A stretch of DNA of 64,000 bases from Alphaproteobacteria bacterium (GTDB lineage: Bacteria; Pseudomonadota; Alphaproteobacteria; UBA828): positions 3,872,001 through 3,936,000 of the forward strand of contig OZ243972.1 of the NCBI GenBank assembly GCA_965214705.1, given 5' to 3'. Below are positions 1,103 to 54,211 of the stretch, piece after piece; positions within the stretch are counted from its first letter, which is position 1, and each line of letters opens with the position of its first letter. The position numbers and the translations under genes are program-made. Below the pieces are notes generated by a model. It was not told the DNA's origin. It worked only from the letters and a program-made list of their open reading frames with translations, and made no database searches.

Positions 1103-3228
1103 ACGGCAGACCGCTGCTGCCGCTGCCGCGATTCGATCGCGACAGTCTCCCGGTGTTGAACTGGCAGCGCCAGCGCGGCCTCCTGATCTCGGTCGGTGTG
1201 TTCCTGGTGATGCTGATCATCCTTCAGCTCGTGAAGGGCGAGGGGATCAGCTACTTCGACGTGAGCTCCATCACCACCGGTGCGACGACGCTGGCGCTCG
1301 CGGCCGTGGGCGAGACCATCGTCATCCTGGCCGGCGGCTTCGATCTCTCGGCCGGCGCGGTGATCTCGCTGGTCAACGTGATGATCATCCAGTTCCTCGG
1401 CGGCGGGTCCGAGTTCTCCTCCGATGTCGCCGCGCTTTCCGGCGCCGAGTTCATCGGGGCGGCGCTGGCGCTGGCGCTTGCGGTGGGCGCGGCGATCGGG
1501 GCGATCAACGGCTTCCTGATTGCCTTTCTCGGCCTGTCGGCGATCGTCGTGACGCTCGCCACGATGTTCATCGCGCAGGGCGCGGCCCTGCTGGTGATGA
1601 CCCACGCGGGCGGCGAGGCGCCGTGGGAGTTCAGCATGTTCTTCACCGGCGAGGCCATCGCCGGTGTGCTGCCCGCGCCGATCATCGTGCTCGCGGTCGT
1701 CATCGTGCTCTGGCTGGCGCTGCGGAATTCGCGGCTCGGGACCGGTATCTACGCCATCGGCAGCGACGAGAAGTCGGCGCTGGCGAGCGGCACCGACGTG
1801 CGGATGACGAAGTTCTGGGCCTACACCATCGCCGGCGTTTGCTACGGCGCCGCCGGCATGTTCATGACGGCCCAGATCGGCGCCGGAGACCCGCTGATCG
1901 GCGCCAAGTTCCTGCTCAAGATTTTCGCCGCCGTGGTCATCGGCGGGACACTGATCGGCGGCGGTCGCGGCGGCTGTGTCGGCACCGTCTTCGGCGCGCT
2001 GACGCTGACCATCATCCTCACGATCTTCCTGCTGCTCGGCATGCGCACCTGGTACGTGCCGTTGGCCGAGGGCGCGATCCTGATCTTCGCAGTGCTGGGG
2101 CTCTCGATGAGCCGGGACCTGCCGGTAGTGGATGTCGTGCGCGGCTGGCGGCAGGCGCTCCGCACGCGTTGGCGGGCACCGGTCGTGCCCTCGGCCGGCC
2201 TCGGAGGTGACGGACTGTTGCAAGACCTGCTGGGCCGAACGGCCGCCCGAGGCGGCCCCGACCTGACTCGCCCGACCGCAGGCTGGTTCACCCGCAACCA
2301 GGCCACGCTCCGCTATATCTCTCCCACCTACGTCATGTTCGCCGTGATCGTGATCGCGACTGTGGTGCTCTTCGGTGAGAACCTGTCGGCGCTCGAATAT
2401 CTCAACGTCCTGCTGCTGTTCACCGCCTTCCTCGCGATCCTGGGCCTGGGCCAGGGGGCGGTCATCATCTCGGGCGGGCTCGATCTTTCGGTTGCGTGGG
2501 CGATCACGTTCCCCGCGATCGTCGTCACCACCTTTTGCTTCGGTGAGAACGGGCCGGCCTATTGGGCGGTGCCGCTGGCGCTGGCGATCGGACTCGCCAT
2601 CGGCTGTCTGAACGGCCTCATGATCGTGCTCTTCAGGATGTCTCCGATCATCGTCACGCTGGCGATGGCGGGCATGCTCGAAGGCATCTCGCTCATCTTC
2701 AGCGACGGCGCGCCTATTGGCGGCTCGCCGCCGGTGCTGCGCTGGTTCGTGTCGGGCCGGCTGCTCGGCATCGCGCCCATCGGCTGGTTCCTGATCGCGT
2801 TTGCGATCGCGGCCACGATCTTCCTCAACCGGACCGCCTTCGGGCGCAGGCTCTACACAGTGGGCAACAGCGTCACCGTGGCGCGGCTCTCCGGCGTCTG
2901 GACCGGCTCGGTCATCGTCGGCGCCTACATGTTGAGCGGCTTCTGCTCCGCGCTGGTGGGCGTGTTGCTCTCGGGCTTCAGCGGGCAGGCGTTCTTCGGC
3001 ATGGGGGATCCGTTCCTGCTGCAATCGATCGCGGTGGTGGTGCTGGGCGGCACGCTGATCACCGGCGGGCGCGGCCACTTCGTCGGCATCCTGGGCGGCG
3101 CCCTGTTGTTCACGGCGCTCGGCTCGCTGCTGACAGGAACGATGCTGCCGGAGGCCGTGCGCAGTATCATCTACGGACTTGTGCTGCTCGGCGCTATCGT
3201 CGCGCTCAGGGAGCGCGCGGACGCATGA
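1099..3228 (+). CDS. ABC permease with two fused RbsC/BPD_transp_2 domains
   Basis: Two GGxDLS and two AVVxGGT motifs in 709 hydrophobic aa; GTGA overlap with upstream ATPase stop. Confidence 0.9.
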   Translation: MNGRPLLPLPRFDRDSLPVLNWQRQRGLLISVGVFLVMLIILQLVKGEGISYFDVSSITTGATTLALAAVGETIVILAGGFDLSAGAVISLVNVMIIQFLGGGSEFSSDVAALSGAEFIGAALALALAVGAAIGAINGFLIAFLGLSAIVVTLATMFIAQGAALLVMTHAGGEAPWEFSMFFTGEAIAGVLPAPIIVLAVVIVLWLALRNSRLGTGIYAIGSDEKSALASGTDVRMTKFWAYTIAGVCYGAAGMFMTAQIGAGDPLIGAKFLLKIFAAVVIGGTLIGGGRGGCVGTVFGALTLTIILTIFLLLGMRTWYVPLAEGAILIFAVLGLSMSRDLPVVDVVRGWRQALRTRWRAPVVPSAGLGGDGLLQDLLGRTAARGGPDLTRPTAGWFTRNQATLRYISPTYVMFAVIVIATVVLFGENLSALEYLNVLLLFTAFLAILGLGQGAVIISGGLDLSVAWAITFPAIVVTTFCFGENGPAYWAVPLALAIGLAIGCLNGLMIVLFRMSPIIVTLAMAGMLEGISLIFSDGAPIGGSPPVLRWFVSGRLLGIAPIGWFLIAFAIAATIFLNRTAFGRRLYTVGNSVTVARLSGVWTGSVIVGAYMLSGFCSALVGVLLSGFSGQAFFGMGDPFLLQSIAVVVLGGTLITGGRGHFVGILGGALLFTALGSLLTGTMLPEAVRSIIYGLVLLGAIVALRERADA

Positions 3229-49386: not shown

Positions 49387-50739
49387 CATATGCGCTAACT
49401 TGTTTGCGGTTCTTCGATGAAGCGTTCCGCGGTTTGGGTCAGGCGCCGCCGGGACGGTTCGGAGAGGGATTTGGAGATCTGGTTCCATTGGTCGATCACC
49501 TCGGCGAGGGACAAATGGGGTTCGATGGCTCGCACGCCCTGGTTGAGCATGAACCTGAAGTCACGCCAGGCGCTGTGCGGCCCGCCTCCAGGCTGTATCC
49601 CCAGGGGGAAACCGTGCCGGCATGACGGATCAGCTTTTCCACCAGCAGCGCCACCAGGAGTTTGCCGTAGAGCCACGCCTTGGCGCTCTCGTCGTCGTAT
49701 TTGGGCAGATGCCCCAACTGCGCCAGAGACTTGAAGCGCTTGAAGACCAGTTCGACCTGCCAGCGGGTGCGATACCACTCCAGGACCTGCGCCGCGCTGA
49801 AGGCCGCTTCGGGAAAGGTCGTGAACACGATGACGTAGCGCGCGAACTCCAGGGTTCGCGGCCGAACCTGCTTGCCCTTGCGCCCGGCCTCCTTGCGCAG
49901 CTTGCGCTGCGCCAGCCTGATGGCTTCCTGCGTCTTTCTGATCGCGCACACGCGCCCCGGCACCGCGATGCCGTCGCCGACCGCCAGCACGGGCCAGGAT
50001 CGCACGCTGCCGACCCGCTTCAGCGTCGTGACGTGTGCAAGCAGGTCGAACGGCGCGCCGTCGCGCGTTCGAAGCGACAGCGACCCGGTGTTCACGCGCA
50101 CGGTGACGTGACCCCCCGCAGACACCACGTGGTGGAGGCCCGCAGCAGTCGAGTACGCCCGGTCGGCGAGCACAAAGTCGCCCTCGCCGACCGGGAACTG
50201 CGAGAACGCCTCGCCCGTGCCCCGTCCCTCGCTCGCCGTGAGCTTGAAGAAGTCGCACGCCAGCGACGGAAGGCGCACGCTGTAGTGCAGGCGCCACAGC
50301 GCCCCGGTCCGGCCCGGCTCCTTCACCGTCGTCGCGTCGAAGGCCCTGACCTGGAACCCGCCAGCGGCCGACATCGCCATCCCCTGTTCGCGAAACAGCG
50401 CGACGCACAACGCGTGAAGCCAATCCCCCGACTTCCTCAGCCGCTTCAACAAGGCCACGTCGGACAGATCGGCCAGGTTCGCCTTCCTCGCACGCACCAC
50501 GGTCTCGCGCAGCGAGTGTCCGCAGGCCAGATGCAGCAACAGCGTGCGCAGCAGGGCATCGACCGACTTGTCCTTGCGCAGACCCTTCAAGGCCCCGGTC
50601 TCCCGTGCCAACTCCCGCCAGCCCTCGGGCAGAAACGACGACACCACTTCCCACTCCTCGTCCATCCGCCAAGCCTCCCCGCAGCGCGCACCAACCCACA
50701 ATACGGAGTGCCGACATGACAAACAAGTTAGCTCTTATG
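49387..50739 (-). mobile_element. IS4 family element with IS186-like ends
   Basis: IRs CATATGCGCTAACTTGTTTG / rc CATAAGAGCTAACTTGTTTG; no TSD seen. Confidence 0.85.
49395..50665 (-). CDS. IS4 family DDE transposase (C-terminus in a shifted frame)
   Basis: FDAT, ADRAY, YRTRWQVELVFKRFKS (YREK); frame change near SPWGY at about 49600. Confidence 0.85.
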
Positions 50740-50808: not shown

Positions 50809-51977
50809 GGATTCCTCTGCGAAAGGGGGTTTGCGGATTTCGTTGCATGTGATTCGTTGCAGCAACGATGTGGAGGTCGAGTCGATGAGCGGCACGGGTC
50901 AGCTGGGATTTGCGGAAGCGTTCATGTCTGCGGGGCTGGGTACGAACCGGAAGCTGGAACGGCTGGATGGGCTGATCGACTGGTCCCGGCTCGAGCGCCT
51001 GGCTGCGCGGGTGCGCGAAGGACGGCGGGGGCGCCCGCCCTATGCGCCGCTGTCGATGCTGAAGGCGCTCTATCTTCAGGCGCTTTACGACCTCTCGGAC
51101 CCCGGTCTGGAGGAGGCGCTGCTGGACCGGCTCTCGTTTCGTCGCTTCTGCGGCTTTGCGCTGGACGGGGGCACGCCGGACGAGACCACGATCTGCCGCT
51201 TCCGCGCAGATGCGGGCGCTGTCCTGGAGGCGGCGTTCGAGGAGATCAACCGCCAGCTGGATGCCGCCGGTCTGATCCTGCGCAAGGGCACGCTGATGGA
51301 CGCGACCTTGGTGGCCTCGGCCTCGCGGCCGCCGCCTTATGCGGCCGGTGCTGGCGCCAGGAGTGCGCGCGAGCCGGGCGCGGATTGGACGCGCAAGAAG
51401 GGCCGCGCGGTCTTCGGCTACAAGGCGCATCTCGGTGTGGACCAGGGCTCGGGGCTGATCCGTCGCCTGGTTCTGAGTTCAGCCAAGACTTACGAGAGCG
51501 AGGTTGCGGATCGTCTGGTCTGCGGCGACGAGGGGGCGGTCTACGGCGACCGCGCCTACGAGGGCAAGCCGAGACGGGCCAGGCTCAAGGCCGCCGGTAT
51601 CAAGGACCGCATCATGCACCGGCGCAACAAGCACATGGCCTCGCTGCCGCCCTGGCAGCAGCGCCGCAACGATCTCATTGCGAGGCGCCGGGCGCCGGTG
51701 GAAGCGGTCTTTTCGGCGCTGAAGCGCCTCTACGGGCTGAGGCGGGCGAAGAGCCTCACGCTTGAGAGGAACACCGCCCGCCTCTACGCCGCTGCCACCG
51801 CCTGCAACCTGCGCCGCGCCAGCCTGATTGCGGGCTGCTGACCGACCAGTGCGCCCGCAAACCGCCGTTTCAGACACAAGATCGTCCAACGATGGCGACA
51901 CACCCGCCTCCATCAACACCGCCCAGCGCCAAAAGCCTTCCCCAACACCCTGTCGAGCCCCTTTCGCAGAGGAATCC
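50809..51977 (+). mobile_element. IS5 family element
   Basis: Perfect 20-bp IR GGATTCCTCTGCGAAAGGGG; no TSD seen. Confidence 0.9.
50885..51841 (+). CDS. IS5 family transposase
   Basis: GRPPY, PDETTICRFR, MDAT, GYKAH, GDRAY, RAPVE. Confidence 0.93.
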   Translation: MSGTGQLGFAEAFMSAGLGTNRKLERLDGLIDWSRLERLAARVREGRRGRPPYAPLSMLKALYLQALYDLSDPGLEEALLDRLSFRRFCGFALDGGTPDETTICRFRADAGAVLEAAFEEINRQLDAAGLILRKGTLMDATLVASASRPPPYAAGAGARSAREPGADWTRKKGRAVFGYKAHLGVDQGSGLIRRLVLSSAKTYESEVADRLVCGDEGAVYGDRAYEGKPRRARLKAAGIKDRIMHRRNKHMASLPPWQQRRNDLIARRRAPVEAVFSALKRLYGLRRAKSLTLERNTARLYAAATACNLRRASLIAGC

Positions 51978-52105
51978 GAAGGGCGGAGAATGGACACCTC
52001 CCACCCCTGATGGTGTCGCTCGGGAGGGTGGACCCTCGCGGGCCGACGGCATCTAAGTGCCAGGGGAAGATACGGTGTCTTCCCGGGCAAACCGGAGGGT
52101 CCGAG

Positions 52106-53131
52106 ATGAAGCCTAGCAGAACGGTGGTCGGCGTGGATACGGCCAAGCGCGTCTTTCAGCTGTATTGGATGGAGATGGATACGGGCGAGGTCAAGGAACT
52201 GAGGCTGACGCGGGCGCGCTTCCTGGAGCGCTTCGCCAACCGCGCGCCCTGCGTGGTGGCGATGGAGGCGTGTGGCGGCGCGCAGCACTGGGCGCGGCGC
52301 CTGCACGCGCTCGGTCACGAGGTCCGTCTGCTGCCGGCGCAGGTGGTCCGGCCATTCGTGGCTGGCAACAAGAGCGACGCGCACGATGCGCGGGCGATCT
52401 GGACGGCGGCGCAGCAGCCGGGCATCAAGACGGTGGCGATCAAGAGCGAGGAGCAGCAGGCGATCCTGGCGCTGCACCGCATGCGCCAGCAGCTGGTGAA
52501 GTTCCGCACGGCGCAGAGCAACGGCCTGCGCGGGCTTCTGGCCGAGTACGGCGAGGTGATGGCGCGGGGCCGTGCGGGGCTGCGGCGTGGCATGCCCGGT
52601 GCGCTGGAGCGGCTCTCGGAGCGTCTGCCGGCGACGGTTATCGAGAGCTTGCGCGAGCAGTGGGCGCGACTGGATCGGCTGGATGAGGAGATCGATGAGG
52701 TCGAGCGTCGCCTTGCGCAGTGGCACAGGCACAACCCAGCCAGCCGGCGCATTGCCGAGATCCCCGGTGTCGGGTTAATCACGGCGACGGCAGCCGTCGC
52801 TGCGATAGGCGATCCGGTGTCGTTCCGGTCTGGCCGGGAGTTCGCGGCCTGGCTCGGCCTGGTGCCGCGCCACAGGGGCACCGGCGGGCGGGTGCGCACG
52901 CTCGGCATCTCCAAGCGGGGCGACCGCTACCTGCGTACCCTGCTTATCCATGGCGCCCGGACCGCGCTCAACAACAGCAAGGCGCCGCCTGAATGGGCGG
53001 TACGTCTGGCCGAGCGGCGGCCAGCGAACGTGGCCACGGTGGCGCTCGCCAACAAAATGGCGCGCACCATCTGGGCCCTGCAGGCCCATGAGCGGGACTA
53101 TCAGCCCAACTACGGCGCAAGACCGGCGTAG
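52106..53131 (+). CDS. IS110/IS1111 DEDD recombinase
   Basis: GVDTAK, AMEACG, KSDAHDA, IPGVG, AWLGLVP, ISKRGDRYLR, ALANK. Confidence 0.95.
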   Translation: MKPSRTVVGVDTAKRVFQLYWMEMDTGEVKELRLTRARFLERFANRAPCVVAMEACGGAQHWARRLHALGHEVRLLPAQVVRPFVAGNKSDAHDARAIWTAAQQPGIKTVAIKSEEQQAILALHRMRQQLVKFRTAQSNGLRGLLAEYGEVMARGRAGLRRGMPGALERLSERLPATVIESLREQWARLDRLDEEIDEVERRLAQWHRHNPASRRIAEIPGVGLITATAAVAAIGDPVSFRSGREFAAWLGLVPRHRGTGGRVRTLGISKRGDRYLRTLLIHGARTALNNSKAPPEWAVRLAERRPANVATVALANKMARTIWALQAHERDYQPNYGARPA

Positions 53132-53391
53132 GCGCGGCCGACGCGGGCAGAGACAAGGCCACACAGGAGGTAGCCGCAGACAGAGTGCGCAAGGCGCGAC
53201 AAGGTGTGATGGCACACAGGTCAGACCGCAATCCGCCAAACCTGACCCGGCCCTTGGGCGAAAAGCCCGTGCGGAGAGTGAGGCGCGGATCAGCAGATAC
53301 CATCGGGGCCAGCAGGACAAAACCCGCACCAACAGGCCGAATATAGAGCTGCACCCTGGCCGCCACTCACACCAAATCAACCCTTGCGTCC
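53132..53391 (+). ncRNA. Putative bridge RNA / seekRNA of the IS1111 element
   Basis: About 260-nt non-coding end with two stem-enclosed internal loops matching target and donor; RNA ends unknown. Confidence 0.75.
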
Positions 53392-53524
53392 GGGAGGCGT
53401 CCATATAGAGGCCGGGAAGAGGAGGGGGATTTTCCGGTCGTACTGCTTGTGCGAGAAGGGCCGCGCGTCAACCGGGGCCGATCCCGTTCGGTCGGACCGT
53501 GCTCAGGGGCACGATCTGCGTGGA

Positions 53525-54211
53525 TCAATGCGCCGGCAGGACCAGGCGTTCGAGTGCCTCGTCGGCCGTCATCACGTCGCCGTAAGACGCGAGGCAGACG
53601 GCGTAGGTCCAGGAGTCCTCTTCCGCCGAGCGGCCGCCGTTGGCGTCCGAGATCATGACCGTCTTGAAGTCGTAGGCGGCGGCCTCGCGCGCCGTGGTCT
53701 CGCAGCAGACGTTGGTGACGGTGCCGACGACCAGGACCGTGTCGACCCCGAGGTCGCGCAACGCGCGCGCGAGGCGTCCCTGGCTGCCGATAAAGCCGCC
53801 GAAGCGGTTCTTGTGAACCATCGGATCGGTGTCGCGCGCGTCGAGCGCCGGCCAAATCGCGTGGCCCTCGACGCCTTCGCTGAGGCCGGCGCGAAAGACC
53901 GCCGCCGCTTCCTCACCCAGGATGGTGTCGAGGTTGGCCCAGTTCCTGTCTTCCTCCGGACCGTAGGTGGAGACCAGCCAGACGACGTGGCCGCCGGCGG
54001 CCCGGAGCGCGCCGGCCAGTCGATTGACCGTCGGCACGATCGCCCTGGCGTGGGGGATCTCGGACGGGCTGCCCTCGCGCATAAAGTGGACCTGCAGGTC
54101 CACCACCAGCAGCGCCGTGCGCGCCGCGTCCAGGTTCTCGAAAGCGTGCAGCCGGCCGCGCCGGCGCAGCACGCGGTCGATGACGCGCTGGGGGATCTGT
54201 ACCGGCTCCAT
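53525..54211 (-). CDS. Cysteine hydrolase (isochorismatase family)
   Basis: LLVVDLQ, KNRF, GTVTNVCCETTAR. Confidence 0.92.
   Translation of the reverse strand: MEPVQIPQRVIDRVLRRRGRLHAFENLDAARTALLVVDLQVHFMREGSPSEIPHARAIVPTVNRLAGALRAAGGHVVWLVSTYGPEEDRNWANLDTILGEEAAAVFRAGLSEGVEGHAIWPALDARDTDPMVHKNRFGGFIGSQGRLARALRDLGVDTVLVVGTVTNVCCETTAREAAAYDFKTVMISDANGGRSAEEDSWTYAVCLASYGDVMTADEALERLVLPAH

Follow-up and report, generated by a model that had tools for sequence, protein, structure and literature searches.

IS1111 elements that use a seekRNA, of which ISEc11, ISPa11 and ISKpn4 are described examples (Siddiquee et al. 2024, PMC11187229), encode a DEDD transposase of about 340 amino acids with a GL-P----(S/T)G motif, and have a long 3' non-coding end and subterminal inverted repeats. 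In these elements the guide complementary to the top strand lies 5' of the guide complementary to the bottom strand, the two guides overlap in the target, and a promoter is formed at the circle junction (PMC11187229). Repetitive extragenic palindromic (REP) units are a known target class of IS1111 elements, with ISPa11 as the example (PMC11187229). For IS621 of the IS110 group, Durrant et al. 2024 (PMC11208160; structure 8wt6) describe a two-loop bridge RNA with target and donor guides, where each loop reads opposite strands on its two sides and a dinucleotide core is common to donor and target; bridge RNAs were predicted there in 93% of catalogued IS1111 elements. In this study a stretch of 64,000 nucleotides from an alphaproteobacterium of the lineage UBA828 (assembly GCA_965214705.1, contig OZ243972.1, positions 3,872,001 to 3,936,000), hereafter the window, was analysed. 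Positions 51990-53409 of the window are an insertion sequence of the IS1111 group (IS110 family), present as a single copy in the genome, and it targets the 3' arm of REP-like repeats, of which the same genome has about 20 copies.

Comparison with the described systems revealed that the window element is an IS1111 system of the kind described in 2024 and ordinary for its family. It has in common with the IS1111 seekRNA elements the transposase type and motif, the long 3' non-coding end, the subterminal inverted repeats (except that the left one is terminal in the window copy), the order and overlap of the guides and, as read from sequence alone, the promoter at the circle junction. It also has the REP target in common with ISPa11. 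The guide bases are different, and the target is REP-like of an alphaproteobacterial type. The two-loop architecture, the reading of opposite strands by the two sides of each loop and the common dinucleotide core are the same as in IS621; in contrast to IS621, the RNA of the window element is located at the 3' end and not at the 5' end, its guides come in the opposite order and its inverted repeats are long.

The transposase gene (52106-53131; this and all other features are on the plus strand unless stated otherwise) is intact, encodes 341 amino acids and is preceded by a ribosome-binding site, GGAGG, at 52094-98. The protein matched Pfam families PF01548 (DEDD_Tnp_IS110, E 4e-13) and PF02371 (Transposase_20, E 1.2e-22) and scored 327.9 bits on NCBIfam NF033542, 'IS110 family RNA-guided transposase' (cut-off 140), in agreement with the IS110/IS1111 identity given in a preliminary description of this DNA. 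For IS1111 transposases a motif GL-P----S(t)G has been described (PMC11187229), and GLVPRHRGTG of the window protein is in accord with it. With 341 residues the protein is also within the 330-350 that are typical of IS1111-type transposases. Among 63 distinct proteins (the window protein and 62 from related loci) the DEDD residues D11, E54, D91 and D94 all fall in columns conserved to at least 97%, and the window protein agrees at 110 of the 112 columns conserved to this degree; the two departures are both conservative (V for I, I for L). Against solved structures, phmmer detected similarity only in the C-terminal half (IS621, 8wt6_A, E 7e-7; ISCro4, 9t56_A, E 3e-6), and the C-terminal domain of the IS621 transposase aligns. 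The T of GLVPRHRGTG is aligned with a serine of IS621, which we take to be the catalytic serine. A search of one genome per species found 488 relatives; the best 80 of these, retained as relative set 1, match the window protein over its full length (residues 1-341) with 61-81% protein identity, and their loci have the same end structure. One of them, in a Pseudomonas genome (L053), has 67% protein identity to the window transposase and is, as a guess, presumably ISPa11.

The ends of the element are bordered by AGA on both sides (51987-89 and 53407-09), and all motifs named in the preliminary description, this AGA included, were found where it had placed them: GGGCGG at 51981-86, ATGGAC at 51990-95, GTCCATAT at 53399-53406 and GGCCGGG at 53410-16. 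The left inverted repeat, ATGGACACCTCCC (51990-52002), is terminal and stands without the 5-nucleotide extension (ATGGN) that relatives have before it. The right inverted repeat, GGGAGGCGTCCAT (53392-53404), is subterminal, being followed by a 2-nucleotide extension, AT, and the core AG(A) at 53407-09. The repeats are 13 bp long and, with the right one (53392-53404) read as its reverse complement, are identical at 12 of the 13 positions; the IS1111 group is characterised by subterminal repeats of 7-17 bp. The non-coding ends are 116 nucleotides (5', 51990-52105) and about 275 nucleotides (3', 53132-53406) long. A long non-coding end downstream of the gene together with long inverted repeats indicates the IS1111 arrangement, the layout that the preliminary description had assigned.

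The 3' non-coding end contains a target-binding loop (53231-53290) closed by the stem ATCCGC (53231-36)/GCGGAT (53285-90) with an inner stem CCU/AGG. The 5' target guide (53245-55) includes CCCGGCC at 53246-52, antisense to the target right arm; it is followed by the hairpin GGGCGAAAAGCCC (53256-68, GGGC-GAAAA-GCCC) and the 3' target guide (53269-80), which includes GCGGAGAG at 53271-78, sense to the target left arm plus core and identical to 51984-89 followed by the first right-flank base. When the non-coding end was shuffled with dinucleotides preserved, a joint ordered match to the rebuilt target (antisense of at least 7 and sense of at least 8 nucleotides within 45 nucleotides) appeared in 9 of 5000 shuffles, and the single matches were common (595 and 439 of 5000). 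The guide-target match in the window, being moderately unlikely by chance, is by itself modest evidence.

The guide reading was settled by relatives, in which the guides were found to track the flanks in two independent sets. The measure was the longest exact match, with the 5' guide taken as reverse complement against the right flank and the 3' guide against the left flank. Set 1 gave 81 elements (80 loci and the window), of which loop and both junctions could be parsed in 48, representing 38 distinct loops; elements were dropped where a junction lay off the contig or the regular expressions failed to catch them. For these 38 loops the 5' guide matched its own right flank over a mean of 6.95 nucleotides compared with 3.58 (standard deviation 0.93) for mismatched pairs, and the 3' guide its own left flank over 7.89 compared with 4.75 (standard deviation 1.48), the latter mismatched figure being high because the guide part GGAGAAAT is common to many members. 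Set 2, drawn from independent metagenome contigs (80 loci, 54 loops parsed, 27 complete, 25 new), repeated the result on the 25 new loops, with own matches of 6.56 (5') and 8.24 (3') nucleotides and mismatched ones of 3.77 and 4.88.

Analysis of an RNA alignment of the window and 54 distinct relatives (alignment A1) revealed a conserved scaffold with two hypervariable stretches, and both guides fall in unpaired columns (35-50 and 65-77); a placement of the matches inside paired stems, which the preliminary description had set against its own proposal, was thus not what the alignment gave. RNAalifold predicted 30 pairs on A1, 17 of them with changes on both sides. In the predicted structure 97.6% of the alignment cells pair, whereas partners slid by 1-3 columns pair in 28-43%, and none of 500 shuffles reached the observed value on any of five structure measures. 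As the structure was itself predicted from these sequences, the control is biased in its favour, and weight was put mainly on the pairs changed on both sides. The minimum-free-energy fold of 53132-53410 contains both the ATCCGC/GCGGAT stem and the GGGC-GAAAA-GCCC hairpin, as the preliminary description had expected, and its two target guides are borne out by the flank tracking and the doubly changed pairs.

A second, donor-binding loop (53293-53352) has a stem GCA/UGC, a stem GGCC/GGCC and a hairpin at 53310-30. Its 5' side, GATACCATCGG, includes CCAT (53300-03), complementary to the start of the left end (CCAT:ATGG), and its 3' side, AATATAGAG, includes ATATAGA (53341-47), identical to the right end plus core over 7 nucleotides. 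In relatives the 3' side reads ATAYARA and the right end CATAYAR; among 24 distinct combinations, loop and right end agree on the variable base Y (C, T or G) in all 24 and on R in 21, with exceptions in three relatives (L007, L020, L084). The 5' side pairs in relatives with the 5-nucleotide extension before the left repeat (ATGGN-ATGGAC): ATCCCAT stands with ATGGGAT in 4 of 4 cases, ATTTCAT mostly with ATGA-type extensions, and in other members the bases past ATGG fit imperfectly, AATCCAT being found with ATGGT. Of the parsed relatives, 63 of 64 in set 1 and 27 of 27 in set 2 have this extension, the lone exception being a parsing error (L085, which by eye reads ATGGA). It is missing in the window copy, and the match of the 5' side is therefore limited to 4 nucleotides. 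The earlier claim that the second loop matches the donor is borne out in part, by the 7 nucleotides of the 3' side and its tracking of the right end in relatives, the 5' side adding 4 nucleotides. Over 54 distinct relatives and the 25 new ones of set 2, the two loops behave as target and donor guides. The window donor guide ATACCAT would fully fit ATGGTAT, the extension type of 17 relatives, and does not fit the actual ATGGACA. The simplest reading of the window's left end would be a loss of 5 bp between tandem ATGG words. An outward-facing -35-like hexamer, TTGCGT, lies at 53384-89, 16 nucleotides before TAGA, which with the AT of the left end gives TAGAAT. TTGCGT-16-TAGAAT would form a promoter on the circle junction, where it can be read as had been proposed; of 52 distinct right ends, 45 have a TTG 15-17 nucleotides ahead of the right repeat.

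Analysis of the insertion site revealed that the left flank, GAAGGGCGGAGA, when joined to the right flank, GGCCGGGAAGAGGAGGGGG, gives the 3' half of a REP-like unit. Positions 51978-51989 hold the 3' arm of the unit (GAAGGGCGG) and the core AG(A) at 51987-89 and are the target left arm, and positions 53410-53428 hold the remainder of the unit, the target right arm, which resembles GGGCCGGGGTGAGG(A/T)GGGG with one G fewer. The genome (66.8% G+C) has about 20 such units, which follow the pattern ...CTCCCTCTCC(G/T)CCCC-loop-GGGG(C/A)GGAGAGGG(C/T)(C/T)GGGGTGAGG(A/T)GGGG. The 15-mer that best fits both guides, GCGGAGAGGGCCGGG, has four exact copies compared with 0.28 expected from a composition-only estimate that treats positions as independent and identically distributed. 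Within the window the 14-mer of the rebuilt target gave one match with two mismatches, below chance expectation. Two REP-targeting elements of Pseudomonas putida, ISPpu9 and ISPpu10, were reportedly described by Tobes and Pareja in 2006; as here, they are IS110-family elements that sit at a fixed position and orientation in a REP unit. The repeat family and the host lineage are different there, and in the window the loop of the REP-like unit is taken up by a second, unrelated insertion sequence, of the IS5 family.

No second copy of the element was found in its own 7.9-Mb genome, where only pieces of 43-50 nucleotides matched, and 60 related genomes gave no copy above 82% nucleotide identity (best 82%). 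Plasmids yielded no near-identical copy and one match of 65 nucleotides; in metagenome contigs the exact pattern gave 0 matches and the protein search reached 78% at best. The protein cluster at 90% identity has six other members, all shorter (108-262 amino acids). Contigs of the public run X1 reproduce both window junctions without differences, and this run may be the same data as the assembly. A variant of the 3' end with about 91-93% identity occurs in the public runs X1, X5, X7 and X8 and carries T53255C and C53272A. These two changes make the guides read GAGGGCCGGG (as complement) and GAGGAGAG, the latter being the commoner repeat subfamily. In run X5 the variant contig continues past the right end as GCCGGGGTGAGGTGGGGG and sits in a consensus repeat; its right junction, CATAT-AG-AGGGCCGGGGTGAGGTGGGGG, which can also be written CATAT-AG-AGGGCCGGGG, has the first AG as core. 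A core at the second AG of GAGAG was ruled out, since the window and X5 junctions both put it at the first. A remnant of the right end, with 88% identity in its last 56 nucleotides, adjoins GGAGGCCGGGGTGAGGTGGGGG in a genome of another species of the genus (G007, locus L097, about 1390-1440, minus strand). The X5 variant and this remnant indicate that related copies occupy the same kind of site. The repeat GGAGAG(G)GCCGGG, at which the preliminary description had thought the element to be aimed, thus exists as a REP-like family, and these two related copies were found in it. No claim on habitat was drawn from the shares of sponge and marine metagenome runs.

Some shorter pieces were also observed. 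A piece of about 45 nucleotides like the left end and inverted repeat (TCTAT-ATGGACGC.TCCCACCGCTGATGCTGTCGCTCGGGA.GG) occurs in the element's own genome (L006, 1490-1550) and in a second genome (L100, about 1495-1560, G017); each time a REP-like palindrome encloses it and the neighbouring sequence is similar, and it may be a remnant or a miniature derivative. In run X7 one contig passes from the right end (53409) back into target-loop sequence and another joins 53245 to 53390, both joins lying within 53244-53409; they may reflect a cycle in the assembly graph or a small rearranged derivative.

Taken together, our analysis suggests, with a probability of roughly 0.88, an IS1111-group element whose 3' end gives rise to an RNA with two guide loops, one reading the REP-like target and the other the element's own ends, with exchange at an AG core. 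By analogy with the described systems, the DEDD transposase would be guided by the RNA from the 3' non-coding end. In the first loop (53231-53290) the 5' guide complements the top strand of the right arm and the 3' guide is identical to the left arm plus the core AG; the two together spell the 3' arm of the REP-like repeat. Excision would give a circle with the junction ...CATATAGA|ATGGAC, also given as CATATAGAATGGAC, creating the promoter TTGCGT-16-TAGAAT, and the site rebuilt after excision would be GGGCGGAGAGGCCGGG. The guide RNA would be transcribed together with the transposase from the circle-junction promoter and would bind the protein. The RNA would then pair with one strand on each side of target and donor and bring the circle junction to a repeat, where strands would be exchanged at the AG core. 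By the same analogy we infer that the element is programmable.

Several results weigh against this two-loop reading or against a working copy. The fold energy of 53132-53410 is not better than that of shuffles (z = -0.26; 81 of 200 fold at least as well), and a scan of 51500-53900 gave no Rfam family for the element; a match to Rfam isrG outside the element was set aside as chance (11.5 bits, the gathering score being 100). Where the element sits, 7 nucleotides of the 5' guide are paired and a mismatch adjoins the core; the consensus repeat would give this guide nine pairs and a G-U. The insertion site is off-consensus, with one G fewer than the repeat consensus, the 3' tail of the guide is AGTG in the window and AATG in relatives, and the 5' side of the donor loop pairs over only 4 nucleotides (CCAT:ATGG). 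The element is single copy in 7.9 Mb while four perfect 15-nucleotide sites stand free. Neither an empty site nor a circle junction was found in the contigs of four runs, and contigs cannot prove absence; no RNA evidence for the element was found either, all runs found being kept as contigs. For ISEc11 a short seekRNA with target matches sufficed for transposition (PMC11187229), so the second loop may matter less in IS1111 elements.

That the matches arose by chance in G+C-rich sequence, with the protein alone choosing the site, might be argued from the frequency of single 7-8-nucleotide matches in shuffles and from a fold that is not unusually stable. Yet the joint ordered match is rare in the same shuffles, the guides covary with the flanks in two independent sets, the stems carry compensatory changes, and the mechanism has been demonstrated experimentally for the family (PMC11187229; PMC11208160), which makes this explanation extremely improbable. 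A narrower account would let only the first loop guide, as in a strict seekRNA; the second loop would be a scaffold or a processing signal, the protein would recognise the ends through the long inverted repeats, and the likeness of the loop to the ends would be a by-product. For ISEc11 the 82-nucleotide seekRNA was enough and worked with higher efficiency than the long form (PMC11187229), long inverted repeats are found in IS1111 and not in IS110-type elements (PMC11187229; PMC11208160), and the 5' donor-side pairing is imperfect in many relatives. What such an account leaves unexplained is the agreement of loop and right end at the variable base (24 of 24) and at the core base (21 of 24), the change of CC to TC in the loop that accompanies GG to GA in the left extension, and the donor-complementary loops reported in the IS1111 elements inspected in PMC11208160. 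The agreements between donor loop and ends could partly reflect shared descent, and we regard guiding by the first loop only as unlikely.

A stranded relic is a possibility to be taken seriously, even if our judgement leans the other way: the anatomy would be as described, the lost left extension would take away most of the 5' donor pairing, and with an off-consensus site excision and reinsertion would fail, leaving a copy that is no longer mobile. The extension that nearly all parsed relatives possess is missing precisely here, the donor guide suits ATGGTAT and not the actual ATGGACA, the copy has remained single despite free perfect sites, the four runs gave no circle or empty-site contig, and the six other proteins of the 90% cluster are all shorter. 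Any decay would have to be recent, however, since the transposase agrees with its relatives at 110 of the 112 conserved columns and the stems of the RNA are preserved. The CCAT:ATGG pairing also remains, since the inverted repeat itself starts with ATGG, the bases past ATGG are not always paired in relatives (AATCCAT with ATGGT), and a short seekRNA was enough for ISEc11 (PMC11187229). For the two-loop guided element preferred here, the gene and RNA region of the window copy are intact and, given the missing extension and the off-consensus repeat, it may or may not still be mobile.

Analysis of the surrounding sequence revealed that the loop of this REP-like unit is occupied by an IS5-family element (50809-51977; NF033581, 246.2 bits), which lies directly upstream of the IS1111 element and is co-oriented with it. 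Its ends, GGATTCC...GGAATCC, were set by 89%-identical copies with clean 4-bp duplications (TTCT, GTTG, CCCA). An assignment of the left target arm to the IS5-like element was ruled out, as these copies stop at GGAATCC; with the ends so fixed, the left target arm belongs to the REP-like repeat. The copy at 50809-51977 has no target duplication, and both its inner flanks are common to a second copy on another contig (L118, G000 contig 3), where the 11 nucleotides after the IS5-like end are those of the window left flank. It may be speculated that read-through from the co-oriented IS5-family gene could transcribe the integrated IS1111 element. Directly upstream of the IS5-family element an open reading frame of 408 amino acids (49496-50722, minus strand) may encode a further transposase, in which case three mobile elements would stand side by side.

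Most relatives (L007-L086, L125-L204) occur in sites like a ribosome-binding site and start codon (..GGAGAA, core, 5-6 nucleotides, ATG). A start-like codon, ATG or GTG, was found between +3 and +16 in 45 of 54 distinct right flanks; in most of them it is an ATG at +6 or +7, and several resemble signal peptides. Open reading frames of at least 100 codons follow 20 of these 45 start-like codons compared with 353 of 1079 control starts, which is a weak test. A literature search found no paper on start-site-like targeting by such elements. At L014 (about 1330-1400) and L096 (about 1560-1620) a second transposase gene of the family begins directly after a relative, the start codon adjoining it; the elements thus stand in tandem, and the guide of the relative fits the ribosome-binding region of that neighbouring gene. 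A broader proposal, which we consider doubtful on balance, is that the window element belongs, as one tip, to a large clade of IS1111 elements that have a conserved RNA scaffold in common and the usual target of which would be translation starts (Shine-Dalgarno-like GGAGAA, core, 5-6 free bases, ATG), the free bases picking the gene. The window lineage would have been re-aimed at the REP-like repeat, and its sister variant again by a single C-to-A guide change following the two repeat subfamilies; the missing 5 nucleotides would be a donor-loop slip between tandem ATGG words.

With at most 81% protein identity (best 80 of 488 relatives) and at most 82% nucleotide identity (60 related genomes) to anything found, the window element appears to be new as far as these collections show. 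The known mechanism is unchanged by these findings. The element adds a natural, fully readable set of guide, target and donor to the RNA-guided recombinases, and its relatives contribute a collection of about 60 different natural guide loops built on a single conserved scaffold, in which free and fixed loop positions can be told apart and which are useful for design rules. The one-base guide difference that follows two repeat subfamilies constitutes a clean natural case of retargeting; together with the missing left extension and the start-site-like targets of the relatives, it is what gives this member of the IS1111 group its added interest.

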